A stretch of 64,000 nucleotides of DNA from an uncultured Planctomycetia bacterium (GTDB lineage Bacteria > Omnitrophota > Gorgyraeia > Duberdicusellales > 4484-171), in assembly GCA_964483625.1 (NCBI GenBank), contig CAZABB010000006.1:2129-66128 (forward strand), written 5' to 3'. Below the pieces are notes generated by a model, which saw only the letters and a list, made by a program, of their open reading frames with translations, was not told the origin of the DNA and did no database searches. Below, piece after piece: positions 21,352 through 41,561 of the stretch (position 1 is the first letter of the stretch; every line of letters starts with the position of its first letter). The position numbers were made by a program, and so were the translations under genes.

Positions 21352-21921
21352 ATGTATAAAAAAATCTTGTTTCTTGGCAAGAAAACATACAAAAAAGACT
21401 ATTCTAAGGCAATTGTTTTAAAAGCAATTAAAGACAAATATTCTTCTATCACAGAACTGCCTGACTCCAAGGCGGCTTACGAGAAGTGCAAAGTATCTCA
21501 CTTTGACATAATCATAGTTGATATGAAGATGCCTGGCCAGGAAGAAAAGCAATGGCTGGAAAAGATTCGCCTTGAGCATGAGGATATTCCGATAGTCATG
21601 GTTGAAGAATTCTCAGGGCAAGCCAAGTTTGTTGCAAAAGAAGCATTTGTCGAATTAGCTTTTTCCGGAGCTGATACCGAAAAGAATAAAAAGAAGGATA
21701 ACAATAATAGAGATATGGATAAGGAATTAGAGGCTATGTTGGAGAAAATACCTATTGAGCAGAGGCAGGAAGCTGAACAGCAGATTAGAAGCATGTATGA
21801 AGAACTTTATAAAATTCGTGAAATAGGTGACAGAATCCACAGTATTTATGAGCATACTCATGCTCAGGTAGAGGCTACTATGGAGAAAGCGAAGGAATAC
21901 GGTTATGTCCCAAGGCCCTAA
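21352..21921 (+). CDS. receiver-like (degenerate CheY-like) domain protein
   Basis: DIIIVDMKMPGQEE...IPIVMV pattern, C-terminal coiled coil. Confidence 0.4.
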   Translation: MYKKILFLGKKTYKKDYSKAIVLKAIKDKYSSITELPDSKAAYEKCKVSHFDIIIVDMKMPGQEEKQWLEKIRLEHEDIPIVMVEEFSGQAKFVAKEAFVELAFSGADTEKNKKKDNNNRDMDKELEAMLEKIPIEQRQEAEQQIRSMYEELYKIREIGDRIHSIYEHTHAQVEATMEKAKEYGYVPRP

Positions 21922-25038: not shown

Positions 25039-25392
25039 TCATGAAGCTTTGAAGTATATCGTCGGGCAGAGGTATTTTGTTCCTTGCTGGTTGTTTCTGT
25101 GATTGTATTTTTCTTTCCTGAGCAGGATTATGGGTGCTCGTATCAGAATTTGGGGTTTTCCGTCCTTGTCATCTTTTTCTGCTTTCTTCGCTCCCCATAG
25201 TCTTATCGCTGTGCTTGTTGTCGAAAGAGTGCTTTGCCTTATGTCTTTTGCGAGCCTGCTTATCGGTGTCCATTGGACATATTTCGGGAGTGCCTTGATT
25301 ATCTTTATCGCTCTTGCTTCCTCTGAGCGTTCAAGGTGGAAGAAGCTTTCTTCATTGTGGAAGCTTACGAGCCTCAGTTTTTCTCTTGCCAT
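25039..25392 (-). CDS. hypothetical protein
   Basis: 117-aa ORF abutting the ATPase gene. Confidence 0.35.
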   Translation of the reverse strand: MAREKLRLVSFHNEESFFHLERSEEARAIKIIKALPKYVQWTPISRLAKDIRQSTLSTTSTAIRLWGAKKAEKDDKDGKPQILIRAPIILLRKEKYNHRNNQQGTKYLCPTIYFKAS

Positions 25393-26774
25393 TTTCCTGC
25401 TATCTCTTTGAGTTCTTCATCGCTGACTTTTCTTATCGGGAGCGGTTGCGGTGTCCTTATTAGGCAGTTCTTGGCTCTGCCTTTCACTTTTGCAACTGCC
25501 TGGGCGACCCATATGTAGTCGAGGTATCTTGTCTCGTGGGGTTTGAGGAACAGGGCGTTTGATACTGTCGAGATGTCCTTGTAGGTGTTGTTTGTGAAAT
25601 GGATTTGGGTCTTGCACTGGTAAGCGTAATTGGGAACAGAGCTTGGCTCCTGCAAAATCGAGCATAGCCCGAGGCCCATCTTGCGTCCCTCACGGTAAAG
25701 ATTCTGAAGGATTTCCCCAGCTATCTGTTGTTCGTGCTGGCTTGAGGGGAAGAGGTGCTGGGCTTCCTCGCATATCAGGAAGAGCCGGAGCTTTTCGGAC
25801 TCTCCTCTGCTGAGCATTTCGAGAAGAATATGCAGGAACAAGGCTTCCTGGAAGAGTATCCTCAGGCTGTTGGGGAGTTCTATGTCCATTTCGAGAATGG
25901 TTATTCCCGGCCTTTTCAGCATTTCTGAGACGTCCATCGGGTTTCGTGAGCCGAACAGCTCTTTGGTATTTGAGCGGAGAAGGCTGTTAAGCACTCGAAG
26001 GGCCGAGTCCTTCCAGAGAGCAGACCTGCCCCGCAGGAATTGCCTGTCCACACGCTTCTTGATGTCCTCGATGTTCGGGAGCAGACGGAGCTTTCCCTCC
26101 TCGTAGCCGTCGAGAAGGTTTTCCGCCTCGTTCAGAATGAGGCTTCCTGATCCCTGGCCTGACAGTAGGGATTTGGCGAGAGGTTTTTCCGCTATTATCT
26201 CAATCCAGCTCCTTCTCGATATCCCTTTCGGGCCCGAGAAGAAAAGGTTGTATCTGAACGGAGAGATGTCCCTGCCGATAGTGAAGACCCGCACTTCAAA
26301 AGGATATTTCTCAGGTGGTAGCGAGAGCAATGATTTCCACTGGCGGTTCCAGTCCACAATCCAGACAGGAATGCCCTTCTTTGCCATCTGGACAGCGATA
26401 TTGAAAGAAAGAAGCGTTTTTCCTGTTCCTGTAAGCCCCGAAACCATGATGTGCTGCATGGCATCCTCAAGAGAAATCCGTAGCGGATAAAGCTCTCTGT
26501 CCGTTCCGTCGGAATTCTTCCCGTAACAGACCGTTCCGAGTGTTATATCTCCCTGTCCGCACTCCCGCTCTGTCGAAGGGGGGAGCATCACTTGGTCATT
26601 GAGTAGCCTGTCCTTGAGGAGCTTGTTTGCCGATAGCCTGAGAATCTTATCAAGCCTTTCTTTCCGCTCATCATCGCCTATTGCGTGTATCAGCTTCAGT
26701 TTTTCAGCTTTATCCGAGCCCCACTCAGTCTCGAGCTTCAGAATCAATTCATTTGTGCTTTCTGCTGTGTCCAT
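25374..26774 (-). CDS. FtsK/HerA/VirB4-superfamily P-loop ATPase (DUF87-like)
   Basis: Walker A SGLTGTGKT, Walker B-like LFLICEEAQHLF, length about 466 aa. The likely start is MDTAESTNE at 26774. Confidence 0.6.
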   Translation of the reverse strand: MDTAESTNELILKLETEWGSDKAEKLKLIHAIGDDERKERLDKILRLSANKLLKDRLLNDQVMLPPSTERECGQGDITLGTVCYGKNSDGTDRELYPLRISLEDAMQHIMVSGLTGTGKTLLSFNIAVQMAKKGIPVWIVDWNRQWKSLLSLPPEKYPFEVRVFTIGRDISPFRYNLFFSGPKGISRRSWIEIIAEKPLAKSLLSGQGSGSLILNEAENLLDGYEEGKLRLLPNIEDIKKRVDRQFLRGRSALWKDSALRVLNSLLRSNTKELFGSRNPMDVSEMLKRPGITILEMDIELPNSLRILFQEALFLHILLEMLSRGESEKLRLFLICEEAQHLFPSSQHEQQIAGEILQNLYREGRKMGLGLCSILQEPSSVPNYAYQCKTQIHFTNNTYKDISTVSNALFLKPHETRYLDYIWVAQAVAKVKGRAKNCLIRTPQPLPIRKVSDEELKEIAGKWQEKN

Positions 26775-26776
26775 TT

Positions 26777-27241
26777 TTAACCCAGAATCTTCCTGTCCTG
26801 TTTTAGTTCCTGTCTTTTGTGCCACTCGTTTATGAAGTAGGTGATGGGTTCGTTGAGGTCTTTCCATGTTTCATGCCTGTTTTCGAGCATCCGCATTTCC
26901 AGGCTGTTCTTTTCTTTTTCGAGCATGGATTTCCTTCTCTCGATGTTCATGTTGTAGCCTGTCCTGAAGCCTGAAAGCTCGCCGATCTGTCCAGATAGCT
27001 CGTTCCATTTTGATTCAAGAGCATAGGAAGAAGCCCGATAAAGTTTAAGCCTGTAAGCCACGGAAAGGGCGGTATTCACGACCTTATCGAGAAGCTTGCC
27101 GGAGTCCTGTTCAAGGATTTCCTCGATAGAAAAGCCTGAAGCAGGGCTTCTTTCGGGCTTGCAGGGCTTGCCAGATGAATAGAGATACTGCTGGAAGAAC
27201 GGCGTGTAATAAGCAACTGGTTTATAGTTATTGAAGTTCAT
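26777..27241 (-). CDS. hypothetical protein
   Basis: 154-aa ORF immediately upstream of the ATPase on the same strand. Confidence 0.4.
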   Translation of the reverse strand: MNFNNYKPVAYYTPFFQQYLYSSGKPCKPERSPASGFSIEEILEQDSGKLLDKVVNTALSVAYRLKLYRASSYALESKWNELSGQIGELSGFRTGYNMNIERRKSMLEKEKNSLEMRMLENRHETWKDLNEPITYFINEWHKRQELKQDRKILG

Positions 27242-28410: not shown

Positions 28411-28491
28411 TGATATCGAGTAAAAAATCTTATTAGCTTAGATTTTAGGTAGCACGCACTACCAGCGATAATTTTATCGCGCCTTAACCAA

Positions 28492-28533
28492 GGGCTATTC
28501 TCAGCAGAAATGCTGGGGGTAGCCCTTTTTTTT
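28492..28533 (+). terminator. rho-independent terminator/attenuator
   Basis: GGGCTA...(inner CAGCAgaaaTGCTG)...TAGCCC followed by T8. Confidence 0.45.
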
Positions 28534-28561: not shown

Positions 28562-29224
28562 ATGAAAAGATTATCAATATTATTATTTCTTATCTTTCTC
28601 TCAGGGTGCGCTTCCATCACGCCCTATCTTAACCAGCCACAGGAGCTTCATGAGGGCGAGGCGGTAATCCTTTCCCGCCTGCTTGATTCAGCATCCCCGC
28701 TCGAGAATTTCGAGGCCGTGAGAGAGATTGCGTTCAGGAACAATCCTGACATGAATGTTCTTGCACTCGAGATAATTTCTTATCACAAGGGGCTCGGCCT
28801 GCTTCGGAATTTCCCCCTGTCCTCCGGCTCAAAAATATACTTCGGTGATTATGCAGGTTCGGCGATGAGTGTCTGCACTTATGTTTCAGACCTGATCAGG
28901 AAGATAAATCCCGAGAGCGACCCGAACATGAAAGTGATGATTGCGAGATTCGAGAGGCTGAGGCTTGAGATTTCCCAGGGGATATCGGATGAGCTTTCTC
29001 TTCTCGAAGACCTGAACGAAGAGGTCAGGGTGCTCAAGTCCCTGCATAAAGACAAGTCCATCGAGGAAAAGATAAACAGGTTCTTTGAAAAGAAAGGCTT
29101 CAGCATAGCTTCGGATGGTGAGAAGCAGGAAGACAAAAATGAGGAGCTTCTGAAGAAAAAGCTCGCTGAAAGGGAAAAGGTAGTCCGCCGGATTTACGAA
29201 CTCTGCGGGCTCGTTAAAAAATAA
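28562..29224 (+). CDS. lipoprotein
   Basis: AAGGAG RBS, MKRLSILLFLIFLSGCAS signal peptide and lipobox, helical C-terminus. Confidence 0.55.
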   Translation: MKRLSILLFLIFLSGCASITPYLNQPQELHEGEAVILSRLLDSASPLENFEAVREIAFRNNPDMNVLALEIISYHKGLGLLRNFPLSSGSKIYFGDYAGSAMSVCTYVSDLIRKINPESDPNMKVMIARFERLRLEISQGISDELSLLEDLNEEVRVLKSLHKDKSIEEKINRFFEKKGFSIASDGEKQEDKNEELLKKKLAEREKVVRRIYELCGLVKK

Positions 29225-29261
29225 TTCTAAAAATCAACCATTCAGGGAGGTGTGAACAGAA

Positions 29262-29705
29262 ATGAAAAGTAACTGGAAGAAAAACAATTTTTCTCAAAGA
29301 GACATGTGTCTTGAACTGCTTGCCGGCAAATTCGGGCTTCCTCTCGAGGAAGATTCGTTCTGGACAAGACGCCCCCGTTTCGTTTATGCCGAAAGCGAGC
29401 TGATGAACTCAAAGACCGAAGCGGTGCTCACCCACAGAAACGGCAGGCTGGTATGGACGGAGAAAATTCAGACTGACAACGGCGAGACCTTCGAGATTTT
29501 GATAGAGACAAACAGGAATCATCCTTACTCTGTCCCGAGAGTTTTCATCACACCGAAGCTTTCGCTGAACGGCAGGGGACGTCCCGACGGAAGTGTGGGG
29601 CTCTGTTCCTGCGATGAATACGTCGAGAAGATGTCGGTGTATGACCTCAGGCAGAAGGCCGTTGATTTCCTCAACGAGCATTTGGCAAATCAATACGGGA
29701 GGTAA
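29262..29705 (+). CDS. UBC/E2-like (ubiquitin-conjugating-enzyme fold) small protein, putative
   Basis: GGAGG RBS. NHPYSVPRVFITPKLSLNGRGRPDGSVGLCSCDEY aligns with the E2 core YPFKPPKVxFTTKIYHPNIxxNGSICLDIL, giving a candidate catalytic Cys. Confidence 0.5.
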   Translation: MKSNWKKNNFSQRDMCLELLAGKFGLPLEEDSFWTRRPRFVYAESELMNSKTEAVLTHRNGRLVWTEKIQTDNGETFEILIETNRNHPYSVPRVFITPKLSLNGRGRPDGSVGLCSCDEYVEKMSVYDLRQKAVDFLNEHLANQYGR

Positions 29706-29711
29706 TCAAAA

Positions 29712-30617
29712 ATGATAATAGACAGGCTATTACAGATTACAGGAAGGATTAAGACTGTCAAAGAGCTTTACCGTCTCGTGAACAAAGGCATCAATACGAT
29801 TATCGAGGGTGCGAAGACTGTCGGCAAGACCTTTGTCCTCGAGAGGGTATTCAAGGCATTCTGCAATTCCGAGCGTGTAAACAGGAAACTTCTTTACGTC
29901 AGGGCGCATGGGACAAGGCGTGATTATGAACAGATTATGTTCGTAATGTCCGAGAAATATGGCGACATCCATGACGAAGACTGCAAAGAGCAGACCTTCA
30001 ATGAATTCCGCAAAGGAAACCAGCAGCAGATTGAGAGACGCATCATCACAGGTATTAAGAATTCAGATTTGCCTTATGTAATCTTCATCGAGGAGATGAA
30101 GAAACTCCCTGACTCAATGCGTATTTTCATTAAAGAGCTTCTTAAGACAGGCAAGGTTTCAATCGTGGCAGAGCCGAAGGATATGTCCGATTCAAAGACA
30201 AGACAATTTTATCAGGGCTTTGACAGGTTTGAAGTGAGGCCGATGAATGACGAGAAGATGGGGATTCTCTTTGATGATTTAATCAAATGTCATTCAGTCA
30301 AAATTAAGCCCGAGGATTACGAGGAGATCAAAAGCAAGCTTCTGATTGAGACGGCAGGCAACCCCGGCAGGATGAAGGCAATAATTGAAAGATGCACCAA
30401 GGAAAAGGAAGTCAATAAAGAAGACATTCTCGAGAAATACGCATCGTCTCACCGCAGGGAATATCCGATAGGCATGAGCATCATGCTCTGTGTGGTTTTC
30501 TTCATGGCTTACAGGTATTTCATGCGGGGGCTCGGCACGGTTACGGACATGGTCTGCGGAGGGATTATCTTCGCCCTGGGGATTCTTCTTTACAGAATCA
30601 GCAATAAATTCAAATAA
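29712..30617 (+). CDS. membrane-anchored AAA-type ATPase
   Basis: Walker A GAKTVGKT, Walker B YVIFIEEM, sensor-like TAGNPG, two C-terminal TM helices. Confidence 0.55.
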   Translation: MIIDRLLQITGRIKTVKELYRLVNKGINTIIEGAKTVGKTFVLERVFKAFCNSERVNRKLLYVRAHGTRRDYEQIMFVMSEKYGDIHDEDCKEQTFNEFRKGNQQQIERRIITGIKNSDLPYVIFIEEMKKLPDSMRIFIKELLKTGKVSIVAEPKDMSDSKTRQFYQGFDRFEVRPMNDEKMGILFDDLIKCHSVKIKPEDYEEIKSKLLIETAGNPGRMKAIIERCTKEKEVNKEDILEKYASSHRREYPIGMSIMLCVVFFMAYRYFMRGLGTVTDMVCGGIIFALGILLYRISNKFK

Positions 30618-30628
30618 GAGGAAAAAAT

Positions 30629-31915
30629 ATGACCACACCTACTCATATCGCAGGAGCTACGGCAGGCATGCTTCTCATAGCAGTCGCCTTCAGGTGCCTG
30701 AACGTATCATGGGCGACAATTCTTTTCACGATGTTTGCGGGACTGCTTCCCGACATAGATAACGTTAAGTCTATAATCGGGTGGCTGTTTCACAGGCTTG
30801 TTTCCATTCTGTCTTTCGGCAAAGTGAATTTCTCGAAGCTTGTTCAGCACAGGGGATTCTTTCATTCACTGCCTTTTGTGGCCCTGCTCTCATTCATACT
30901 TTATTTCATAAGGGCTGATTTGATTCCTTATCTCCTGATTGGAATGCTCTCTCACATTGTCCTTGATTCATTCCAGAAGAGAGGTGTCAAGCTTCTGGGT
31001 TTTGGCAATGCCTGGGGAAGATTCTCCCTTAATTGGAACATGCTCTTGAGGTCTTCGGGAGAATATTCAGTCCTTGCTTCCTGCATCATGATTATTCTTG
31101 TTTCATCGGCGGTAATCTCGAAAGGCGGGACTAATCACATCATCAGGAAAGCGTTAGGCACGCTCAAGGCCACTGTTGAGGATATCAATGACCTGAAGAA
31201 TTATGAGTGCTTCCTTGTCGTGAATGATAGCGGTGTCCAGAGTGAGTATCTTATAATCGGCTCTTTTGGAAAGGATTCAGTCATTGTCCTTGACGGGAAT
31301 TCTCCTCTGTCATTCGGCTACCGCCATAACTGCCAACTGAAAGCGGATAACAAGTCTTACGTCAGGAAAGACAGGAAGATGAAGACTATCGAATACAAGT
31401 TTATCCTGAAGGATAAATCATTCAGGCATCTTTATAACAAGATTGACAGCTCGTATTTCTATTATTTTTCCGGCAGTGCTCTTCTCAAAGATTCAAAGGA
31501 AATCCCGTTTTTTTATAACAGGTATAACACTGTTTCTGCTTCCGGAAAGAGGCTGAATTTTGAATTTGCGAGGCTTGAGGATTTGAAGGTTTATGGGATT
31601 GAGGACTCTGAAATACTGCTCGGCGATTTTGTAATAACTTACAGAATCGCCGAAGGCCAGAATCCTCCTCCGCTTTCGGCAAAGATTACCGAAGCGGTTT
31701 CCGCCGATGTTGAAGCTGTCGAGAAAAGGATTTCGGAATTGAAAGGAATCATAAACAGTCCTGACCTGAAGCGGGAAGTCGAAAACATATTCAATGTCGA
31801 TTCAGAGGAAGCGGAAATCTACCTGCGGGTTTTCAGGAGAAAGGCTGAAAAGCTGTTAAAGGAAGAAGAAACCAACCTTCTGAGGATTCACTCGATAAAA
31901 AAGGATATGCCATGA
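30629..31915 (+). CDS. DUF457/YdjM-like membrane-bound metal-dependent hydrolase fused to a ~250-aa soluble domain
   Basis: About 4 TM helices with conserved HxxxD (HIVLDSF) in the N-terminal 170 aa. The C-terminal domain is unknown. Confidence 0.5.
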   Translation: MTTPTHIAGATAGMLLIAVAFRCLNVSWATILFTMFAGLLPDIDNVKSIIGWLFHRLVSILSFGKVNFSKLVQHRGFFHSLPFVALLSFILYFIRADLIPYLLIGMLSHIVLDSFQKRGVKLLGFGNAWGRFSLNWNMLLRSSGEYSVLASCIMIILVSSAVISKGGTNHIIRKALGTLKATVEDINDLKNYECFLVVNDSGVQSEYLIIGSFGKDSVIVLDGNSPLSFGYRHNCQLKADNKSYVRKDRKMKTIEYKFILKDKSFRHLYNKIDSSYFYYFSGSALLKDSKEIPFFYNRYNTVSASGKRLNFEFARLEDLKVYGIEDSEILLGDFVITYRIAEGQNPPPLSAKITEAVSADVEAVEKRISELKGIINSPDLKREVENIFNVDSEEAEIYLRVFRRKAEKLLKEEETNLLRIHSIKKDMP

Positions 31916-32769
31916 AAATTCTCAAAGAATACGAAAGGCACATGAAGATTTGCAGGAAAAGCCCTGCCACTATCCGGCAGTATGGTAATGACGTGAAGCT
32001 TTTCTGCAATGCTTTCGGTGCGGATATCTTCAAGAGTTCGGGCAAGGACGTTGATGGATTCATTGAGTGGCTCATTGACAGGAAGTGCCAGAACGTAACG
32101 ATTGCGAGAAAGATAGCATCGCTCAGAAGCTTTTACGTCTTTCTCACAGCGAAAGGCTTCGTGAAAAATAATCCATTCCTCAAAGCTCCAAAGCTGAGGA
32201 TCCCCCGGAAAGACCAGAGGGTTCTCACGGGAGAAGAAGTAAATCGGATATTTGAGACCCTGGGGGATTATCCTCCCACTCTTAAAGGCAGGGTGACTGA
32301 TTGCATCCTGCATATCATGTATTTTCTCGGCCTGCGGGTCTTTGAGGTTGCGAGCCTCGATGTCTCAAGCATCTCGGCTCCGCCTGAGAGTTATCTGAAC
32401 TTTATCGGGAAAGGCGGGAAACAAAGAAGCCTTCCGCTTGTCCATGATAAGCTTGTCTGCTCTCTTGATGAATGGATGGAATTTCGGAAAAAGTTTCCCG
32501 GAGTCGAGGCCCTTTTCATCAGCCGTAACCTCAGCAGGATTTCGGTAAGGACTATCCAGAGGTGGATAAAGTGTCTCGGAGTAAATTCCGGCTTGGGGGA
32601 TTGTTTGACGCCTCACGTTCTGAGAAGGACTTTCGCTACCCGGCTTCTTGAGCAGGGGGCTGACCTTTTCTCGGTTGCGGATTTGATGGGGCACGAGAGC
32701 CTCACTACGACAAGGAGGTATGCAGTGGTAACAGACAAAAAGCGGAAGGGCACGCTTCTCTTACTATGA
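31912..32769 (+). CDS. tyrosine recombinase (XerC/D-like)
   Basis: N-terminal SAM-like domain (TIRQYGNDVKLF...IASLRSFYVFL) and catalytic R...HVLRRTFATRLL...GHESLTTTRRY. Its start overlaps the upstream stop (ATGA). Confidence 0.8.
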   Translation: MKILKEYERHMKICRKSPATIRQYGNDVKLFCNAFGADIFKSSGKDVDGFIEWLIDRKCQNVTIARKIASLRSFYVFLTAKGFVKNNPFLKAPKLRIPRKDQRVLTGEEVNRIFETLGDYPPTLKGRVTDCILHIMYFLGLRVFEVASLDVSSISAPPESYLNFIGKGGKQRSLPLVHDKLVCSLDEWMEFRKKFPGVEALFISRNLSRISVRTIQRWIKCLGVNSGLGDCLTPHVLRRTFATRLLEQGADLFSVADLMGHESLTTTRRYAVVTDKKRKGTLLLL

Positions 32770-32836
32770 TTATAACTATATTAGTTGCACATTTAATTAT
32801 GATTAATTTTTCCGGTCAGAATCCGTGTTTTTACGG

Positions 32837-32861
32837 TTTTCTGGCTGGTTCTGCCAGAAAA
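32837..32861. other. candidate recombinase core site (9-7-9 inverted repeat TTTTCTGGC-tggttct-GCCAGAAAA)
   Basis: Perfect 9-bp inverted arms with a 7-bp spacer 68 nt after the Xer-like stop. Additional GCCAGAAAACCG / CGGTTTTCTGGC copies lie at 32832-32846 and 32913-32924. Confidence 0.4.
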
Positions 32862-32971
32862 GAATTTCTTTCACGACTGAAGTCTGGCCGTTTCTTTAAC
32901 TCGCTCTTAACAGCCAGAAAACCGTATTATTTGGCGGTCAGATTTATGTCCTTAATCCGGGAGGTGTCCTG

Positions 32972-33838
32972 ATGATAAAAAAATTATTCAACCGCATCAG
33001 GGATTCCTTTGGAAAAATTAATGAGGAGTCCTATGACGAAAATGCAGTCCTTGATGAATCCCCTCATGTCTCAGATGAGGGCGAAAAGAAGGTCTGCGTT
33101 CTTGAGTTCTACGCTTTCATGCGTAAGCTGTATGAGAAGATTCTTGGCAGGCTGGGGTTCTCGTATTTCATAACAGGGAGCGAAGAAGAATTTTTATCAT
33201 CCCTTGAATGCTGTTCTGTTGCCGTTGTTGATGACAACCAGCCTGACATCAGGGGCTTTCTTCTGGCCTCAAAACTGAAGGCTGAACGCCCTGAGCTTCC
33301 TGTAATTGTATGCACAGCTAACGCTTCGCTTGAAGCTTATGAGGAGTTCAAGGTCTCTAAGGCTGATGCTCTGCTGTTCAAGCCTGTTTCTGAAAGCGAG
33401 CTTGCTGGCTGCATTAATAGGGTTCTTGTCAAGTCCTCTGCCGAGCCTGTTGTTGAAGAAAAAGTAATTCCGAAAAAGCGTGGCAGGAAACCTTTTACTT
33501 TTCTTGATATCGCTGAAAAGCATGTCTGGGAGTTTTCCCAGAGCGGGCTTTCAAAGGCCGAGTTTTCAAGGAAGAACAAGCTGAGCCTTTCATCTCTGAA
33601 AAACGAGTTCAGGATTATTGCACTGCCTGAAAGCGTGAAGAAACTTGTAGGCGAAAACATCGACTGCTTCAAGAAGTCCTTTTTTGAGCACATCACCAAG
33701 CTCAAGGATGAACAGAGCATCCTTGATTTATGCTCTGAAATTATCGAACGTGGTAGCAAGGGGTCTTATTATGATCTCTCTGCCCTGAAGCAGAGAGTCA
33801 ATGAGTATCTTTCATTGGAGAAAAAAGATGAGGTTTGA
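32972..33838 (+). CDS. receiver (REC)-like domain protein
   Basis: VAVVDDNQPDIRGF...LPVIVCTAN...DALLFKPV with a C-terminal helical domain. Confidence 0.5.
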   Translation: MIKKLFNRIRDSFGKINEESYDENAVLDESPHVSDEGEKKVCVLEFYAFMRKLYEKILGRLGFSYFITGSEEEFLSSLECCSVAVVDDNQPDIRGFLLASKLKAERPELPVIVCTANASLEAYEEFKVSKADALLFKPVSESELAGCINRVLVKSSAEPVVEEKVIPKKRGRKPFTFLDIAEKHVWEFSQSGLSKAEFSRKNKLSLSSLKNEFRIIALPESVKKLVGENIDCFKKSFFEHITKLKDEQSILDLCSEIIERGSKGSYYDLSALKQRVNEYLSLEKKDEV

Positions 33839-34769
33839 AGAGCGAATAAAAGTCAGCAATGATTTTGTCCTTGAGGTTGCGAGGAAGGCTTTTCCTTCCT
33901 GTAGCCTGAAGAGCGTCTGCCCTTCGTCTCTTGGCAAAGTCTCGAGCGTTTTCAGGGTTGATATTTCTTCCCCTGATAAGAACATGTGCCTGAGGGTCTC
34001 ACGCAACGGAGAGGTCGGGAAGGAATCTGTCGCTTACGGCCTGCTTGAAGGGATTGTTCCTGTCCCTCCGATAATAATTTCAGGCGAGAAGTTTCTCCTG
34101 TCGGGCTGGCTTCCCGGCATGACTCTGGAAGACGCTTTAAAGACTGTTGATTCCGATGACAGGAGGCTTCTTGCTTTCTCTGCCGGCGAAGTCCTTGCCC
34201 GCATCCATTCGGTCGCTCTTGATTCTTTCGGTTTTATCTTTGACGGTGATGTTGCGTTTCCTTCGGCGAGGTCTTTTATTCTGACGAAGCTTGATTCGCT
34301 TCTTTCTTCTCCTCTTGTCAGGGAAGCTTTCGGGCTAATTACTCTTGAGGAGATTAAGAAATTCTGTTCCCAGTATATTGTTATGTTTGAAGGGAAACCT
34401 TGTCTGCTTGTCGGGGACTACAAGGCAAACAACATCAACGTAATCAATGATCCTTCATGGAGGATTAACGGCGTCTATGATTTCGGGGATGCCTTTGCAG
34501 GACTCAACGAGTGGGATTTCTCCAAGTTCTTCAGGCATGTTGCGGATGTTTACCCTGACATGAAGCGGCCTTTCCTTAGCGGGTATAAGAAATGCGGGAC
34601 TATAAAAAACGGCTTTGAGAAAAGGGTGAGAATCTTCGATGTTTTCCTGATACTCCTCACTGTCGAGAAGATGATGAGGGCTCCCGTCTCTGACGAGGAA
34701 AAGATTGAGGAGCTTCGCAAATACGTTGATGTCCTGAAGGAGAACATCTTTATCGTAAATTCACTATAA
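33828..34769 (+). CDS. phosphotransferase (APH/choline-kinase family) protein kinase-like
   Basis: Brenner-like motif LVGDYKANNINV and DFGDAFAG (DxD). The start overlaps the REC gene stop. Confidence 0.65.
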   Translation: MRFEERIKVSNDFVLEVARKAFPSCSLKSVCPSSLGKVSSVFRVDISSPDKNMCLRVSRNGEVGKESVAYGLLEGIVPVPPIIISGEKFLLSGWLPGMTLEDALKTVDSDDRRLLAFSAGEVLARIHSVALDSFGFIFDGDVAFPSARSFILTKLDSLLSSPLVREAFGLITLEEIKKFCSQYIVMFEGKPCLLVGDYKANNINVINDPSWRINGVYDFGDAFAGLNEWDFSKFFRHVADVYPDMKRPFLSGYKKCGTIKNGFEKRVRIFDVFLILLTVEKMMRAPVSDEEKIEELRKYVDVLKENIFIVNSL

Positions 34770-34974
34770 GAGGTGATTAATTTGAGAAAGAAAAAGCCTG
34801 ACATGAAGTTCAGAGGTAAGTGCGGAAAGTATGATTTTGAGCTTTCCGTCACCTTTGCGCCGTTTCCTTCCTCAAAGGAAAGGGACAGGGCTTATCGTGT
34901 GTGGGCTGAGACATTCGCTGAAAGCTGTAAGAAAGGGAGAAAGGTTTAAGTAATCTTCTTGAATATAAATCTCT

Positions 34975-35487
34975 ATGCAAACTAAAGCACAGTTAAACAG
35001 GCAAAAGGACGGATATCGTAGAGAGAATGAAATGGTGGATTATTATTTGTCTAACGGGTTTAAAGTGCTTGGGTATAAGAATTGCGATGATATGAACATG
35101 ATATCGTTTTTCCTGCCTTTTGAGATTGCGCTAAAGAAAGTCTTTGGTTCTTGGAATTCTCTTGCGGAGCTCGTTCGGTCAAATACTGTTGAAATGTTAA
35201 GGCTATCAAAGGATGGGGAGCTGGAAGTGCTTGAAGTCAAAACTAAAGCCGATATTAAGAAAGATAAAGCATCTCATAAATTTAGATTTGATTGTCAGCC
35301 AGAACAGATAGAAAAATGTGAACGTGTGCTTGAGAAAGGAGTTGCGGTTATTTGGGTTTTTTATATAGAGACTTATAATAAATACATAGAAGTCCCTTTT
35401 GGTGAATTGCATTTTTCACCTAAGCAATGCAAGGTTAAATTACCTGAAAAATATCGAGACCTTAATTTGTGGAATGTTAAAGAATAG
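34975..35487 (+). CDS. PD-(D/E)xK nuclease-like hypothetical protein
   Basis: KDGELEVLEVKTK resembles the DGxLhhhEhK nuclease core. Confidence 0.4.
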   Translation: MQTKAQLNRQKDGYRRENEMVDYYLSNGFKVLGYKNCDDMNMISFFLPFEIALKKVFGSWNSLAELVRSNTVEMLRLSKDGELEVLEVKTKADIKKDKASHKFRFDCQPEQIEKCERVLEKGVAVIWVFYIETYNKYIEVPFGELHFSPKQCKVKLPEKYRDLNLWNVKE

Positions 35488-35622
35488 GCGTCGCTCAGAT
35501 ATCCGGATAATTCCCTATCCATCGCCAAAAGTTTTTCCTGTGTTTGGGGCACATTTCCTTCCTTAGCTCTTTCAGTGGTTTGTCTGACGCTTCGATTTTG
35601 GTTAAGCAGTTGCAGGTTTTCA

Positions 35623-35631
35623 TGATATAAT
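35623..35631 (+). promoter_or_regulatory. possible extended -10 promoter (TGaTATAAT)
   Basis: TGnTATAAT element 120 nt upstream of the mcrB-like start. No good -35. Confidence 0.25.
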
Positions 35632-35751
35632 GTGAGCTATTAATATTTATATTAGTTCTTGACAGTTTGTCGGAAGTTTTTCGGCATTTTGATAAAGTTT
35701 TTATATGAGTAGGGGTTTATGCCCTGTTAATTATTTGGGAGGGGGTCTGTT

Positions 35752-38091
35752 ATGGATAAAGCTGTTCTTGTATCAAAAATTAAGGAGTTGAGCAATCTTG
35801 CTAATAAGCTTCATGGCTTTGAAGATGATGAGGAAAGTTTCCTTGTTGCGATTAAGGGGCTTGACAGGAAGTATCTTGAGGGCGAGCTTGAGAAATTTCG
35901 TGAAGGAAGCATTAGCTGGAATGGCGTTTTGAAGCCTGTTAATTTCCTTAAATTCTTGGTAATAGATAAGGTTCTTGATGACAAGGATGTTTCTCTTGAG
36001 ATTATTGACGAGTTCAAGGATAGGATTCTTAAGCTGGATGTTGATTATTTCAAGGATTATCCTGATTTCAAGGAGGCAATGCTCAAGCTTGAGAAGGGTA
36101 AAAACTTTTTTTGGCAGTGGAACAATATTTTCAAGATTCTTTTTTATGTCTATTATGACCAGCATAAGGACAGCGTCAATTCTTCTCTGACCGAGATTGC
36201 TGACCATTTCAAGACTGTTTTGAATATGAAGGATTCCAAGACAACGATTAACGGGTTTGGGTGGAATAATAATTATGGCTCGAGCGATTGCTGGATTGCT
36301 CTTTATCCTCCTGATAGGGACAGCCATCAGAAGGCTTATCAAATCTTTTTGAGGGTGAATCCTGTAAACGAGCTTGTTTATGGAATGACTAACGGCGCAA
36401 AGATTGCGGAGAACAAGAAGCTTGAGAAGCAGGATGGTTCTAACGTTGATGTAGACAAGCTCGAGAAATTTCTCTTTGAGAAAGCTAAGCCTGAGTATGA
36501 AAAGCTTAACGCCTCTGTTAAACCTGAGCCTGACGAAGAAGAGGTTGACGAAGAATTAAGGGTTGTCGATGAGAAATGCCCCAAGAATGTCATTCTTTAC
36601 GGCCCTCCTGGGACTGGAAAGACTTATATGGCTTACGAGGAGGCTGTTCGCATTGTTGATCCTTCCTTTTCGTGGAAGGACAGGAAGGCTCTCGTTGCTA
36701 AATTTCGTGAGTTTCAGGATAGCGGTTATATCACTTTTGTTACTTTCCATCAGTCTTTCAGCTACGAGGAATTCATTGAGGGTTTCAGGTATGACAAGGA
36801 AGAAAAAATGCCTATGGTTGAGTCTGGCGTGTTCAAGACGCTTGTCGAGAGCGCAAGGTCTGACTATGTAAGTCCTAAGAAGAAGATTGATTTGAACCTT
36901 GCTAAGAGGAATGTATTCAAAATGTCGCTCGGCAACACTCTCAAGGAAGATGAGGATATTTATGATTTCTGTATGCAAGAAGACATCATAGCCATTGGTT
37001 GGGGGCAAGATGTTAACTATACGGGAGCCGATACTAAGGAAAAAGTCGCCAAGAAGTTCAAAGAGCATGAAGGAAGCGATAAAGATTCTGTCTTTAATGT
37101 AACAGCGATTCACTTCTTCAAGAATATCATGAAGAAAGATGACCTTGTATTTGTCTCTAAAGGAAACCGTTCCTTGCGTGCTATTGGTCGTGTTGTGGGG
37201 GAATATTATTATGATGAAAATGTACCTATAAATTATCGCCATTTCAGAAAGGTCGAGTGGCTTCTTACGGACAGCAATATTCCCGTAGAGAAAGTTATGA
37301 AGAAGAATTTCAGCCAGCAGACTATTTATGAGATAAGCAAGAGCTGGCTGCTTGAACAGAACCTTCAGGAGCTTCTTGCTAAACCAGCAGACAATAAGAA
37401 AGAGGTCAGGAATTATGTGCTGATTATCGACGAGATTAACAGGGGGAATATCTCTAAGATTTTCGGGGAGTTAATCACTCTTATTGAGGATGATAAAAGG
37501 CTTGGCATGGAGAACGAGATGGTCGTCAAGCTTCCATACAGCAAGGAGATCGATTTCGGGATTCCTCCCAATATCTATGTTATCGGCACTATGAATACTG
37601 CTGATAGGAGTATAGCTTTGATGGATGTCGCTCTTAGACGAAGGTTTAGTTTTAAGAGGATTGCTCCAGAATCCAAGATTATCTCTGACTTGTTGTCCGA
37701 GAAGGAGGTCGATGGGGATTTTATTGAGATTTTGCAGAAGTCCTTTATTGCCTTGAACAAAAGGATTAAGGTGTTGCTTGATGAAGACCATGTTATAGGG
37801 CATAGTTATTTTCTGAAGATTGGGCCTGAAGATTTCGAGTATGATCTTCATGCTGTCTGGTATGACAAGATTATTCCTCTGCTTCAGGAATATTTCTATA
37901 ATGATTGGGATAAGTTGAGGCTTGTTCTCGGCGAGCATAATTCTCAGAAACGTAGCGGTTTCATTAAGGTTTTAGAGGCTGAATACAAGGGCATTTTCGG
38001 CTCTGAGTTTGATGAGGAGTATCCTTGCGAAATTGTCCGCTATGAGCCTGATTTGTTCTCTCAGGTATTGAAGAACACATTTATCGGATAA
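35752..38091 (+). CDS. mcrB: McrB-family AAA+ GTPase with unknown N-terminal domain and internal PUA/EVE-like insertion
   Basis: Motifs GPPGTGKT, FHQSFSYEEFIEG, LIIDEINRGNISKIFGE, GTMNTADRSIALMDVALRRRF are near-identical to E. coli McrB motifs, but about 175 extra aa lie between FHQS.. and IIDEINR. GGGAGGGGG RBS. Confidence 0.8.
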   Translation: MDKAVLVSKIKELSNLANKLHGFEDDEESFLVAIKGLDRKYLEGELEKFREGSISWNGVLKPVNFLKFLVIDKVLDDKDVSLEIIDEFKDRILKLDVDYFKDYPDFKEAMLKLEKGKNFFWQWNNIFKILFYVYYDQHKDSVNSSLTEIADHFKTVLNMKDSKTTINGFGWNNNYGSSDCWIALYPPDRDSHQKAYQIFLRVNPVNELVYGMTNGAKIAENKKLEKQDGSNVDVDKLEKFLFEKAKPEYEKLNASVKPEPDEEEVDEELRVVDEKCPKNVILYGPPGTGKTYMAYEEAVRIVDPSFSWKDRKALVAKFREFQDSGYITFVTFHQSFSYEEFIEGFRYDKEEKMPMVESGVFKTLVESARSDYVSPKKKIDLNLAKRNVFKMSLGNTLKEDEDIYDFCMQEDIIAIGWGQDVNYTGADTKEKVAKKFKEHEGSDKDSVFNVTAIHFFKNIMKKDDLVFVSKGNRSLRAIGRVVGEYYYDENVPINYRHFRKVEWLLTDSNIPVEKVMKKNFSQQTIYEISKSWLLEQNLQELLAKPADNKKEVRNYVLIIDEINRGNISKIFGELITLIEDDKRLGMENEMVVKLPYSKEIDFGIPPNIYVIGTMNTADRSIALMDVALRRRFSFKRIAPESKIISDLLSEKEVDGDFIEILQKSFIALNKRIKVLLDEDHVIGHSYFLKIGPEDFEYDLHAVWYDKIIPLLQEYFYNDWDKLRLVLGEHNSQKRSGFIKVLEAEYKGIFGSEFDEEYPCEIVRYEPDLFSQVLKNTFIG

Positions 38092-38095
38092 GAAA

Positions 38096-39415
38096 ATGGT
38101 CTTAAAAAATAAAGTTATATCGCTTTCAGAATTTGAAGAAATTCCCCTCTCTGAGCTTGAGGTAAAGATTGGCAAACGAGGCATCAGGCTTTTGAAGAGG
38201 ATTAATTCCCGGAGCGGTTGCGAGATTTTTCGCCTCTTGCATGATAGGGTTAAGGCTTCTCATTATGTGGGTTTTGTCCGTGTTCTTGGTTACACGATTC
38301 AGGTCGTGCCTAAAGTTTTTGGGGAGGACAAGCCGGATAATCTCCATTTCCTTCTTTGCCTTTTGAGATATACAAGGAAGATTCAGGTCAAGGAGCACGA
38401 AATCGGTAATCTGGGGAAGGTCAAGGATGACTTTTTCGAGATATTGATTTTCTTGTTTGCTAAGGCTCTTCGGGAGCTTTTGCGGAGGGATTTTAAAAAG
38501 ACGTATGTTGTCCGTGAAGAAAATAGTCCGTTCTTGAAGGGAAAATTCTTAATCAGTGAGAATGTCAGGCGGAATATTTTTGATGATTCGAGGTATTGTT
38601 GCAGGTTTGATGAATTCACTGAGAATAATTTGATGAATCAGCTCTTTAAGTATGTTGTTTCGATGCTCATAAGGATATCGAGGTCTGTGTCCAATAAGAA
38701 GCTCCTTGAGGATATCCTCATATATTTATGTGATGTTGAATTGGTGAATATTACCTGTGCGGATATTGATAGGATTCACTTTACCCGTCTCAACAATTCA
38801 TATGAGCCGTTGGTAAACCTGTGCAGATTATTCCTTGAAAACATGAGCATCCGTTTCTCAGCTTCCAAGCTCGAGACTTTCGTGTTCATGTTTGACATGA
38901 ACAGGCTGTTTGAGGAATTTGTCTTTGAGTTCGTTAGAAGAAACAGGAGTAAATTGTTTATTGGCGGGGAAAACGAAGTTGTTTTTGTTAAAGACCAGAT
39001 TTATATTGGCAAGCTGTTCGACGAATTCAAGATGCGAGGGGATATTCTCATTAAGGACTCTTCAGGCAGACTTATTTTGTTGGATACGAAGTATAAAACT
39101 CTTGATTCATACGCCCTTCATGGGCGTTTGTCTCAAGCAGACTTTTATCAGATGTTTACTTATTCGACATCGCAAGAACAAAAGTATGAGGATGTAATCT
39201 TGTTGTATCCTTCCAATGAAGAGGTGGCCGAGCCTTTCACTGATAAAGAGCTTAGGCATGTTATAGCTGGAAAAGAGACTGTTAAGATTCATGTCAGAAC
39301 AATCAGTCTTACTAAAATATTCAATGCGGAAAAGAAGTCAATTAATGAGACGGCGATGATTGAAGAGTTAAATAAAGCATTTATGTTGCCTTCTGCTAAT
39401 TTGGTATTGAGGTGA
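38096..39415 (+). CDS. mcrC: McrC-like restriction endonuclease subunit
   Basis: Starts 5 nt after the mcrB-like stop. C-terminal PD-(D/E)xK core LILLDTKYK, McrC-like length. Confidence 0.75.
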   Translation: MVLKNKVISLSEFEEIPLSELEVKIGKRGIRLLKRINSRSGCEIFRLLHDRVKASHYVGFVRVLGYTIQVVPKVFGEDKPDNLHFLLCLLRYTRKIQVKEHEIGNLGKVKDDFFEILIFLFAKALRELLRRDFKKTYVVREENSPFLKGKFLISENVRRNIFDDSRYCCRFDEFTENNLMNQLFKYVVSMLIRISRSVSNKKLLEDILIYLCDVELVNITCADIDRIHFTRLNNSYEPLVNLCRLFLENMSIRFSASKLETFVFMFDMNRLFEEFVFEFVRRNRSKLFIGGENEVVFVKDQIYIGKLFDEFKMRGDILIKDSSGRLILLDTKYKTLDSYALHGRLSQADFYQMFTYSTSQEQKYEDVILLYPSNEEVAEPFTDKELRHVIAGKETVKIHVRTISLTKIFNAEKKSINETAMIEELNKAFMLPSANLVLR

Positions 39416-39447
39416 CAAGGTAGTGACGTTTTGCCGGAGGAATAATA

Positions 39448-40305
39448 ATGAAAAAACCTATGATTTCCAGATATATTTCAGATGAACGAATTTTTGAGGA
39501 TATTATCTGCAAAGATTTTGAGTTCCTTGTGGATAAGATAAAGCAGTCTGGCTTTGAGTATTCGCTCGAAATCAGGGAAGATTACTTTAATCTGTATTAT
39601 CAGGGTAACAGTATAGGCAAGATTACCTTTCGAGCTCGCAACAGGGATTATAAAGTTGGAATCAATAAGAAGTTTGTTGATAAGAAGATGAATGACCGTT
39701 TTGATGGTCAGAAATCAGGTGACTATGTTGATTTCTTCATTTCTCCAAAGAAATTGCAGTCTTTTTTCTCTGAAGCTAATTTAAGGTTTCTCAGCCAGAA
39801 GGTCAGGGACGTGAATTATCAGGAGGAGATTGCTTTTGAGCAGATGATTATGACTGATAACGTCGGCAGACCTGATTTTGTCGTAATTGACAGGCAGGTG
39901 GTTGACCACTCGAGCAGGGAGAAGATAGATTTGCTTGGCCTCAAAAGGGTTTCTGGGGATAATTTTCAGTTTTGCGTGCTTGAAGTAAAGCTGGGAAAGA
40001 ATGAGGAATTGAAAGGCGCAGTGAGCGGTCAGCTAAAGCGATATGTCAGGAGGGTTACAGACCATTTTGAAGAATATAAGCAGTGTTATGAAAAGAATTT
40101 TGAGCAGAAAAAGATATTGGGTTTGATTAATAGCATAGAAAAGGTTTGTATTGTTAAGCCTGTCCTCGGCATTGTTGTTGTAGGTGGCTATGGCGGTTTA
40201 GCAGAACCGAACATAAAAGAACTTAGAGGCAAGGATAAAGATATCAGGATTCTTCACATAAAGAACGAGATAGACTTTAACAAAGTAGAGCCAAAATGCA
40301 ATTAA
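39448..40305 (+). CDS. NucS/DUF91-like PD-(D/E)xK nuclease
   Basis: GRPDFVVID...FCVLEVKLGKN nuclease core in the C-terminal half. Confidence 0.55.
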   Translation: MKKPMISRYISDERIFEDIICKDFEFLVDKIKQSGFEYSLEIREDYFNLYYQGNSIGKITFRARNRDYKVGINKKFVDKKMNDRFDGQKSGDYVDFFISPKKLQSFFSEANLRFLSQKVRDVNYQEEIAFEQMIMTDNVGRPDFVVIDRQVVDHSSREKIDLLGLKRVSGDNFQFCVLEVKLGKNEELKGAVSGQLKRYVRRVTDHFEEYKQCYEKNFEQKKILGLINSIEKVCIVKPVLGIVVVGGYGGLAEPNIKELRGKDKDIRILHIKNEIDFNKVEPKCN

Positions 40306-41561
40306 CTATTTATCGTGGCACTAAGGAAATCGGCGGTTCTTGTGTTGAGCTTCAGACCAGGAATGCAAGGCTTCTTGTCGATTTCGGTCTTCCTTTGAGT
40401 GATGAGACTTTTTCTAAGGACGTTAAGAAGAAGTCCATGAAGGATTTCATAAGGGATGGATTGCTTCCTGACGTTGAGGGATTATATGATAAGCCGGGCT
40501 TTGACGCTGTTCTGCTGAGTCATGCCCATCAGGATCATTACGGCCTTCTTTCCTTTGTGCATCCCGATATTCCAATCTGCATGAGCCGGGGCACGAAGGA
40601 GCTTGTCGAGCTCAGCTATCTTTTTGGCCAGACAAACTGCAACCTTAAGAATGTCAGGGTCGTGGAGGCTTGGAAGACTTTTGAAATAAAGGATGTCAGG
40701 GTGACTCCTTACCTTGTTGACCATTCAGGCTTTGACGCAATGGCTTTTCTCATAGAAGCCGACGGGAAACGAATCTTCTATACTGGCGATTTCAGGGCGC
40801 ATGGAAGAAAATCGGTGCTTTTCCGCTCCATGATAGAAAATCCTCCGAAGGATATTGATTACCTGATTATGGAAGGCACAATGCTTTCAAGGGAAAATGA
40901 GGAACGCAAGACCGAGGATGATGTCGAGAAAGAGCTGGTGTCTCTTTTGAAATCTCAAGGCAATCTCACTTTTTTGTCCTGCTCGTCCCAGAATATCGAC
41001 AGGCTTGTTTCTGCATACAGGGCGTGCATGCAGACGGACACTTTGTTTGTAGTTGACCCCTATACTGCTTATGTTCTTTATGAGCTGAAAGACATCTCGA
41101 AGGGACTCCCTCAATATGATTGGGGCAGGAACATGAGGATATTTTTCATCCCGAACAAATACACGGACAAAGTTCTTAATGGGAAAAAGATGTATCAGTT
41201 TAAGAGGGCGAAAATCACAAAAGAAGAAGTGTTCTCTCTTGAGAAAAAAATGCTTGTTAAGGATTCTTACACCATGAGGAATATCTTCAGGAACAAGCGG
41301 TTGCTCAAAGGCACTTCAGTCATATATTCGCAGTGGGAAGGATATCTTGATGACATAAAGGAATTCTGGGATAAGAATGGGGTTAAGATTATACAGGTGC
41401 ATGTCTCAGGCCACGCTTACGTTGCGGACTTGATTAAGTTCGCACAAGCGGTAAAACCTAAGAACATTATTCCTATACACACTGAGAGGGCAGAAAGATT
41501 TAAGGAATTATTCGATGCAAATATAATCTCTGTCAATGATAGGCAGAGAATAGATTTATAA
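40296..41561 (+). CDS. metallo-beta-lactamase fold beta-CASP nuclease
   Basis: MBL motif SHAHQDHYG, beta-CASP motifs (YTGDF; ...HVSGHA). Overlaps the previous gene by 10 nt. Confidence 0.7.
   Translation: MQLTIYRGTKEIGGSCVELQTRNARLLVDFGLPLSDETFSKDVKKKSMKDFIRDGLLPDVEGLYDKPGFDAVLLSHAHQDHYGLLSFVHPDIPICMSRGTKELVELSYLFGQTNCNLKNVRVVEAWKTFEIKDVRVTPYLVDHSGFDAMAFLIEADGKRIFYTGDFRAHGRKSVLFRSMIENPPKDIDYLIMEGTMLSRENEERKTEDDVEKELVSLLKSQGNLTFLSCSSQNIDRLVSAYRACMQTDTLFVVDPYTAYVLYELKDISKGLPQYDWGRNMRIFFIPNKYTDKVLNGKKMYQFKRAKITKEEVFSLEKKMLVKDSYTMRNIFRNKRLLKGTSVIYSQWEGYLDDIKEFWDKNGVKIIQVHVSGHAYVADLIKFAQAVKPKNIIPIHTERAERFKELFDANIISVNDRQRIDL

Follow-up and report, generated by a model that had tools for sequence, protein, structure and literature searches.

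A membrane NTPase, YdjM-fusion and tyrosine recombinase module of mobile elements, with an optional, degenerate E2-like gene

We analyzed an operon of five co-directional open reading frames (ORFs) at positions 28562-32769 of a 64-kb stretch of bacterial DNA (contig CAZABB010000006.1), which at its full length of 64,000 nucleotides is called the window throughout. On the + strand, the operon encodes a 220-aa (amino acid) lipoprotein, counted from its ATG (28562..29224); a 147-aa protein with the UBC fold of E2 (ubiquitin-conjugating) enzymes (29262..29705); a 301-aa P-loop nucleoside triphosphatase (NTPase) of probable STAND/AAA_16 type (29712..30617); a 428-aa YdjM (DUF457) fusion (30629..31915); and a 285-aa Xer-like tyrosine recombinase (31912..32769). 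Comparison of these genes across loci indicates that the core is a triad of secreted protein or lipoprotein, transmembrane-anchored STAND NTPase and YdjM fusion, nearly always found with the tyrosine recombinase, and that the E2-like gene, inserted between those for the lipoprotein and the NTPase, is optional and varies between strains.

The five genes are a genuine operon. Their positions and order are exactly those of the original prediction; its spacings of 38, 7 and 12 nucleotides were start-minus-end differences, and the untranslated gaps are 37, 6 and 11 nucleotides, with the last pair overlapping by 4 nucleotides (ATGA). Shine-Dalgarno sequences (GGAG/GGAGG) lie ahead of the first three genes. 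The upstream edge is marked by a strong terminator-like hairpin on the + strand, with a 17-pair stem followed by T8 (28490..28527), which closes an upstream 248-aa gene and sits 34 nucleotides before the first ATG at 28562. We found no sigma-70-like promoter between the hairpin and this ATG, a point that weighs against the reading favored below; expression may come from read-through past the hairpin or from a non-sigma-70 promoter.

The lipoprotein has a signal peptide (N-terminal hydrophobic segment at residues 1-24 by hydropathy), the lipobox LSGC, a coiled-coil-rich body and a conserved C-terminal motif, IYELCGL(V/I)K. The NTPase carries ITGR at residue 9, Walker A GAKTVGKT at residues 33-40, Walker B IFIEE at residues 124-128, and two transmembrane segments near its C-terminus, at residues ~253-298 by hydropathy. 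Against Pfam, the window NTPase itself gave weak matches to AAA_14, AAA_16 and AAA_22 (AAA_16 at 19 bits, below the threshold of 32.6), while distant homologues meet the thresholds for AAA_16, AAA_22 or NB-ARC, as in Methylobacter (AAA_16 38.0) and Flammeovirga (AAA_16 32.6, NB-ARC 28.1).

In the fusion protein, YdjM (PF04307) covers residues 1-123 of 428 (E 1.6e-22, 80.3 bits against a threshold of 29). This part contains several transmembrane segments by hydropathy and the His/Asp motifs PTH, PDID, HRGFFHS and SHIVLD of a putative membrane metallohydrolase; H6, D42, D44, H74, H79, H109 and D113 are invariant among the aligned homologues. Past this domain lie ~300 further residues, comprising a transmembrane helix at ~144-167 and a ~260-aa C-terminal domain with a helical tail. 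Profile-profile comparison has led to the prediction that YdjM is a zinc phospholipase C/alpha-toxin-like domain; RHS proteins employ it as a toxin module, and it often occurs coupled to a beta-sandwich domain (PMC8557891). In sequence searches of the PDB, the NTPase and YdjM-fusion profiles, including the YdjM C-terminal domain, found no relative. A link between DUF457 and CRISPR effector pores was dropped, as the paper concerned DUF4579, a prefix match.

The recombinase matches Phage_integrase (PF00589) at 5.5e-32, has an N-terminal SAM_1 domain (2e-13) and retains a complete catalytic set: R142 (GLR), the Lys of GKGGK, H235VLR238, GH261ES and RRY270. It scores 173 bits against the NCBIfam model for XerC (TIGR02224; cut-off 335) and 162 bits against that for XerD (TIGR02225; cut-off 330). 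Because these scores are far below the equivalog cut-offs, it is not a chromosomal Xer protein. Searched against PHROGs, the core genes gave no match apart from the integrase. Thus, by Pfam and hydropathy, the domain calls made earlier for the lipoprotein, the two-helix ATPase, the YdjM/DUF457 protein with its extra domain and the Xer-like recombinase all held.

To see how these genes are distributed, we gathered seven independent cassette loci by searches with the NTPase and the YdjM fusion, followed by contig look-ups. Common to all seven, in the same order, are the lipoprotein, the NTPase, the YdjM fusion, the recombinase and a receiver (REC)-domain protein, with the lipoprotein homologue always upstream of the NTPase gene. 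An APH-like kinase is present in 5/7, and nothing else is common to the loci. In the window, the receiver-domain protein is a 288-aa product with a putative helix-turn-helix (HTH) C-terminal domain (32972..33838, +), and the kinase, of the APH/fructosamine-kinase family, has 322 aa (33801..34769, +).

The recombinase and the NTPase are also found as one polypeptide. A tblastn search of PLSDB with the NTPase led to a gene that is annotated as tyrosine recombinase on a Flammeovirga plasmid and whose 530-aa product is a fusion of Phage_integrase (5.8e-29) followed by AAA_16/NB-ARC; the NTPase profile aligns to residues 239-517, both transmembrane helices included. Full-length relatives of this fusion are plasmid-borne in Flavobacterium (pA5BP1, 14.4 kb), Spirosoma and Haliscomenobacter (two plasmids), and the fusions of these four genera match Phage_integrase at 1e-29 to 1e-34 together with AAA_16/NB-ARC. 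A further fusion on a Thiospirochaeta plasmid has 74% coverage, being cut at the record start, and is backed by tblastn and the recombinase profile only. The fusion proteins, of 501-530 aa (L029 6296-7888; L030 5932-7506; L031 5983-7500; L032 5914-7419; L034 1-1176), combine a recombinase catalytic domain, a STAND NTPase and two transmembrane helices, and RefSeq labels them merely integrases. As the fusion is present in six complete plasmid records, an assembly or annotation error is unlikely.

The other members of the module travel with the fusion. A 420-447-aa YdjM protein adjoins the fusion gene in Flavobacterium, Spirosoma and Haliscomenobacter; in Flammeovirga, the adjoining YdjM part is split into ORFs of 127 and 284 aa; and in Thiospirochaeta, 4.5 kb and an IS110 transposase separate the fusion from a 419-aa YdjM gene. 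Small lipoproteins stand alongside three of the plasmid fusion copies. On a Methylobacter plasmid, the triad consists of a secreted protein of 217 aa, an NTPase of 307 aa (AAA_16 above threshold) and a YdjM protein of 369 aa, which aligns with the YdjM-fusion profile through its C-terminal domain; a recombinase is missing. The linkage of membrane NTPase, YdjM fusion and tyrosine recombinase that was proposed from the window thus recurs in the same order in seven loci and in fused form in six plasmids, and no account of the combination turned up in PADLOC, by sequence search of the PDB or in the literature searched. Since the recombinase and NTPase are one polypeptide in Bacteroidota and spirochaete plasmids, they probably work together, and the conservation of the module along with this fusion is strong evidence that these components make up one functional system.

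The module is rare and horizontally spread. The cassette contigs L020-L024 sit in metagenome-assembled genomes (MAGs) labelled Sphingomonadales, Thermoplasmata, Woesearchaeota, 'bacterium' and Auribacterota, and the only long scaffold with a cassette copy, of 652 kb, is Auribacterota. Because the MAG labels contradict each other, the apparent archaeal distribution is not to be trusted, and mobile-element contigs bearing the cassette seem to have been mis-binned.

The E2-like gene had been taken for an integral member of the operon. On this point the comparison across genomes divided: the other four genes stay linked, whereas the association with the E2-like gene is not conserved. The contig L020 matches the window at 95-96% DNA identity in two blastn blocks (L020 119-741 with window 28592-29214, and L020 750-6003 with window 29696-34949), and the 481-bp segment that bears the E2-like gene in the window (29215..29695, +) is cleanly absent from it. 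The junction in L020 is the ancestral form seen in L014, L015 and L005, in which a lipoprotein ending in ...CGL(V/I)KxxGGxx overlaps the ATG of the NTPase gene, and the last two codons and the stop of the window E2-like gene come from this ancestral junction. In the E2-less loci, the lipoprotein stop overlaps the NTPase start. We found the E2-like gene in four loci only, namely the window, L001, L002 and L003, with the five-gene order kept in L001 and L002; a hidden Markov model (HMM) scan of the module copies in all six frames found none in L005-L012, L014, L015 or the fetched plasmid loci. Scans of metagenomes and viruses for further E2-bearing or module-bearing loci yielded none that were new. 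By synonymous divergence, L001, which has the E2-like gene, and L014, which does not, are nearer each other than either is to the window; therefore, the segment has either moved between cassette lineages or been lost repeatedly. Where present, the gene has a ratio of nonsynonymous to synonymous divergence (dN/dS) of ~0.10-0.13 against the window copy, and of 0.33 between the two closest copies, L001 and L003. These values indicate that it is under purifying selection like its neighbours and is not decaying.

A word-indexed search with the 147-aa protein gave just three close homologues; an exhaustive HMM search gave 32 distant ones. The AlphaFold2 (AF2) model built from the 32-sequence alignment reached a mean predicted local distance difference test (pLDDT) of 89.8 and a predicted template modelling score (pTM) of 0.83, superseding a model from 3 sequences that was discarded for its pLDDT of 62 and noisy Foldseek matches. 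In a Foldseek search of the PDB with the new model, all of the top 50 matches were E2 proteins or ubiquitin E2 variants (UEVs), of the UFC1, Ubc9, TSG101-UEV and Rad6 types (probability ~1.0, template modelling score ~0.5), and the best viral match was a 'Type II CBASS E2' protein, CBASS being a system of antiphage signalling based on cyclic oligonucleotides. Alignment of the family with human UBE2D2 by hhalign gave 92.8% probability, and the family profile matched eukaryotic E2s in the PDB at E 5e-6. The PADLOC CBASS 'E2' models were matched by 24/32 family members, down to E 4e-16, and several members carry the precomputed Pfam label PF26395 (E2-CBASS). Taken alone, the window protein reached E 0.0038 against the PADLOC E2 model and matched no Pfam E2 model. 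Collectively, these data bear out the UBC/E2 similarity first noticed in the sequence, and show that the protein is a true UBC/E2 homologue from the bacterial E2 family PF26395 (E2-CBASS type).

The register first proposed for its active site, with Cys115 aligned to the catalytic Cys, did not hold. In the profile alignments, Cys85 of UBE2D2 and the Cys of the family motif 'DGSLCL' both fall on Gly113. This canonical column is Cys in 21/32 family members; the window protein has Gly113 there, P0002 and P0003 both have Trp, and P0004, the nearest outgroup (34% identity), has Val. The His column, corresponding to the HPN-like motif, is His in 22/32 members and Arg105 in the window protein; in the profile-to-PDB alignment, the family His aligns with that of 'HVY' in UBE2W-type E2s. 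Cys115 lies two residues past the catalytic column and maps to Asp87 of UBE2D2. A check of cysteine conservation was thus split, in that Cys115 is kept in the three closest homologues while the canonical column is occupied by Gly113. Because the canonical catalytic Cys and His are both replaced, ordinary E2 chemistry is doubtful.

We looked for partners that an E2 would need. Pfam scans of the island ORFs examined (the low-GC island described below) found no ThiF/E1, JAB or ubiquitin-like protein (Ubl) gene, and none of the operon products has a C-terminal Gly. PADLOC and Pfam scans covering the operon and its neighbours found no CD-NTase (cGAS/DncV-like nucleotidyltransferase) cyclase or CBASS effector. 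By contrast with the usual setting of intact-motif relatives, which in the 3/3 loci checked lie in an operon of E2, a ~55-aa protein, a ~190-aa protein, ThiF and Replic_Relax, a tblastn search of the whole 64-kb window with the ThiF and small partner proteins of these operons gave no match. The earlier remark that no E1, Ubl or JAB gene is nearby therefore stands. The operons in question run as DUF2905, E2, ~55 aa, ~190 aa, ThiF, Replic_Relax and a protein of ~770-940 aa (L013 6001-9049, L018 6001-9831, L019 6001-9173), and their small proteins lack a Gly-Gly end; they apparently represent a plasmid-borne E1/E2 system. Within the bacterial E2-CBASS-type family, the 147-aa protein fits best as a degenerate member that has become an orphan.

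Between the recombinase and regulator genes lies a spacer of ~200 nucleotides (32770..32971, +) with an AT-rich start and several GCCAGAAA-type motifs in both orientations. A perfect 16-nucleotide inverted repeat (32832-32847 / 32911-32926) lies within it, as does a TTTCACGAC-like motif whose core, TTCACGxC, is invariant. The spacer is kept in 7/7 cassette loci with ~70 invariant columns, and in distant loci its identity is 60-64%, compared with 57-66% for the flanking genes, so that it is conserved like coding DNA. A 68-aa ORF overlapping both flanking genes is open in 4/7 loci and broken in 3/7, including the close relative L014, making a small-protein gene unlikely. Neither further copies of the spacer motif in the window nor att-like repeats flanking the cassettes were found. 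The spacer is likeliest a site at which a protein binds, be it an operator recognized by the REC-HTH protein or a site of recombination. The receiver domain of that protein matches PF00072 (1.3e-9), has an invariant phospho-acceptor D87 with T115 and K137, and its profile matches the CheY and RcsC receivers at 1e-8 to 1e-12. A KRGRKP motif precedes the putative HTH C-terminal domain, which resembles a ParB-type HTH weakly (E 0.064) and has no match in the PDB by sequence search. We found no histidine kinase in the cassette that could act as its partner.

The operon lies inside a low-GC island of ~32 kb, at ~12.2-44 kb (12254-43990), with a GC content of 0.42 against 0.48-0.49 in the flanks, which encode MnmE, Mur ligase, AccA, EF-G and UvrD. 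These flanking genes mark the host as a bacterium; an archaeal host, suggested at first by Thermoplasmata, Woesearchaeota and Pacearchaeota MAG labels, was rejected on account of them and of the conflicting labels on short cassette contigs. A large serine recombinase with Resolvase, Recombinase and Zn-ribbon domains stands at the left edge (10553-12253, -), and the island is probably an integrated element or a defence island. Besides the operon, it carries a restriction-modification (R-M) system, a second integrase, a HerA/CedD-like ATPase, and McrBC with a metallo-beta-lactamase (MBL) nuclease, such that R-M and McrBC flank the operon. Of the R-M pair (12763-16321), one product is an N6-methylase of 709 aa that includes an AlwI-like endonuclease region, and the other is a specificity subunit of 484 aa. 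A second tyrosine integrase (19133-20146, -) and a second receiver-domain protein (21352-21921, +) are both unrelated to the cassette copies. A HerA/DUF87-type ATPase of 497 aa and a 154-aa ORF (25374-27241, -), the former with weak NCBIfam similarity to CedD and TraC, are common only to the closest cassette loci, L001 and L014, and may serve DNA transfer or packaging in a larger element. On the other side, the McrBC block (34950-42531) comprises a 170-aa ORF, an McrB-like GTPase (35752-38091), McrC (38096-39415), a 285-aa ORF and an MBL/RMMBL nuclease (40296-41561); in L020 it is swapped for unrelated genes (6004-8683), and similarity resumes at window position 42532. Other cassette copies adjoin genes for OLD nuclease, nSTAND3, NACHT and a MazE-like antitoxin, and the Methylobacter copy adjoins a PIN/AbrB pair.

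STAND NTPases are switch proteins of immune systems. The reading that we favor, while giving it a little less than an even chance, is that the module is a mobile conflict or defence system with a phospholipase-like effector. It has on its side the defence genes that flank the operon in the window and adjoin other copies, and the prediction that YdjM is a phospholipase-like toxin domain. In such a system, the transmembrane-anchored NTPase would be the switch that gates the YdjM hydrolase, and YdjM would be a membrane-damaging, phospholipase C-like effector. The lipoprotein would act as an envelope-side partner or sensor, and the membrane-tethered recombinase would have as its DNA substrate either incoming molecules or the repeat-bearing site of the element itself, while the REC-HTH protein and the kinase would regulate expression. 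The E2-like protein might then serve the NTPase or hydrolase complex as a UEV-like, non-catalytic accessory modulator, outside any ubiquitin-like conjugation cascade. Several observations weigh against a defence function. The matches of the core genes to PADLOC-DB 2.0 were marginal only (E2 0.0038, PtuA 0.0035, mad8 0.015), and to our knowledge a translationally coupled tyrosine recombinase is rare in defence systems. The conserved, repeat-bearing spacer that adjoins the recombinase gene resembles a recombination or operator site, and the occurrence of the module on small plasmids near rep and parA genes would fit plasmid maintenance equally well.

We also suggest, tentatively and with rather less confidence, that the lipoprotein, STAND NTPase, YdjM fusion and recombinase may represent an unrecognized class of membrane-tethered, NTPase-gated recombinase system in the mobile elements of several phyla. 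The recombinase, working at the membrane, could be an immune effector directed at incoming DNA or a signal-controlled switch, and the degenerate E2 a plug-in regulator in one lineage.

Element maintenance, which we judge possible but unlikely, is the alternative that survives best. Here, an NTPase-controlled, membrane-tethered recombinase would act on the repeat-bearing site to resolve multimers or to control integration and excision, the REC-HTH protein and kinase would make this signal-dependent, and YdjM and the lipoprotein would be envelope partners. Membrane-bound FtsK activates XerCD, which offers a loose analogy, and the resolution sites of Tn4430-type tyrosine recombinases likewise carry inverted and direct motifs. 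The neighboring rep and parA genes on small plasmids speak for this proposal, as do the intact catalytic residues of the recombinase, its fusion to the NTPase, and a ~200-nucleotide spacer that is conserved like coding DNA with motifs both inverted and direct. However, the REC-HTH profile finds nothing beside the plasmid fusions, and neither the spacer nor the kinase was found there, though the spacer motif itself was not searched for. The Methylobacter triad does without a recombinase, the window holds no other copy of the motif, and no flanking att repeat surrounds the cassettes. In addition, it is hard to see what a phospholipase-like membrane protein and a lipoprotein would do in resolution, and the NTPase appears to be of the STAND type rather than an FtsK/HerA translocase.

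For the E2-like protein, the counterpart of a non-catalytic accessory is an active enzyme, in which Cys115 or a nearby Ser would serve as a displaced nucleophile and modify a module component, for example the NTPase, independently of an E1. We consider this improbable. Two findings do count against a non-catalytic role: Cys115 is invariant in the three closest homologues, and P0013, at 26% identity, repeats 'LCS' in this region, within the same S-x-x-L-C-S. The position of Cys115, at that of UBE2D2 Asp87, is beside the active site, and the dN/dS of ~0.10-0.13 against the window copy also agrees with activity. There is precedent in E2-only type II short CBASS, proposed to work without an E1 (bioRxiv 10.1101/2022.05.25.493364; PMC11153139), and in the E2s of the Bub pathway, which act through oxyester intermediates (PMC11601596). 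Yet P0004, which has Val in the canonical column, has Ala at the Cys115 position, and the HPN-like His is Arg in the window protein. No operon protein ends in Gly, no Ubl or CD-NTase accompanies the operon, and nearly all copies of the module do without the E2-like gene.

Very unlikely, in our view, is a minimal DNA-transfer apparatus, with the recombinase as an atypical relaxase, the NTPase as a coupling ATPase, and YdjM and the lipoprotein remodelling the envelope. TcpM of pCW3 is reportedly a tyrosine-recombinase-like atypical relaxase. The module is confined to plasmids and islands, its carrier plasmids are typed as non-mobilizable (no known relaxase), and a HerA/VirB4/CedD-like ATPase adjoins the cassette in the window and its closest relatives. 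But this HerA-like gene is linked to the module in close relatives only, no other mating-pair-formation genes were seen, and the NTPase appears to be of the STAND type, neither VirD4- nor FtsK-like. A reading of the five genes as a ubiquitin-like signalling operon, with the E2 tied obligatorily to the ATPase, hydrolase and recombinase, had tight spacing, co-orientation and the gene order of L001 and L002 in its favor, but is hardly credible now that the E2-like gene proves absent from a 95-96% identical strain and every more distant copy of the module, with its canonical Cys and His lost and no E1 or Ubl present.

How does the module compare with systems already described? With the E2-CBASS type (PF26395, Cap2-like), the window protein shares the UBC fold and homology at the family level. 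Members of that family carry H...DGSLCL, whereas in the window protein Gly takes the place of the Cys and Arg that of the His, no CD-NTase, effector, E1, JAB or Ubl lies nearby, and its own intact-motif relatives sit in E2-ThiF-Replic_Relax operons rather than in CBASS. UEVs (TSG101, Vps23, Mms2) likewise have a UBC fold without the canonical Cys, and TSG101 and Vps23 are among the best structural matches; the window protein differs in its conserved Cys at +2 and has no specific sequence relationship to eukaryotic UEVs. It shows how an E2 fold can detach from an E1 and be reused after losing its canonical catalytic residues, and two ~95% identical strains that differ by its presence make a natural experiment.

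The interest of the locus rests less on the E2-like gene than on the conserved NTPase-YdjM-recombinase module and its fused form. Compared with XerC/XerD-FtsK and with plasmid and transposon resolution systems, the module shares an Xer-like recombinase, a membrane ATPase partner and a repeat-bearing site beside the gene. It departs from them in a recombinase below the equivalog cut-offs, an ATPase of probable STAND type rather than an FtsK translocase, and a recombination site that is a candidate. Should its role be maintenance, the module would amount to a self-contained equivalent of FtsK-controlled Xer recombination. With YdjM of Escherichia coli (LexA regulon) and the YdjM toxins of RHS proteins (PMC8557891), the fusion protein shares PF04307, the His/Asp metal motifs and an attached extra domain, which here has no sequence relative in the PDB; what sets it apart is its fixed set of operon partners, namely the membrane NTPase, lipoprotein and recombinase.

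With STAND defence proteins (Avs, NLR-like, NB-ARC/NACHT), finally, the module shares an NTPase of probable AAA_16/NB-ARC/ATPase_2 type and a setting amid defence genes, and in Avs, as in the plasmid fusions, the enzymatic domain is N-terminal to the NTPase. Unlike them, the module NTPase is short (~250 aa and two transmembrane helices), without a C-terminal repeat or sensor domain, and it has constant YdjM and lipoprotein partners with no significant PADLOC match. The N-terminal domain of the fusions is a tyrosine recombinase, of which we found no description as a STAND effector in the literature searched. Should the module serve defence or conflict, it would bring a new architecture, in which a minimal membrane STAND switch is combined with a phospholipase-like effector and a tethered tyrosine recombinase, and the occurrence of the fusion in cultivable Bacteroidota (Flavobacterium, Spirosoma, Haliscomenobacter and Flammeovirga) makes its function directly testable.

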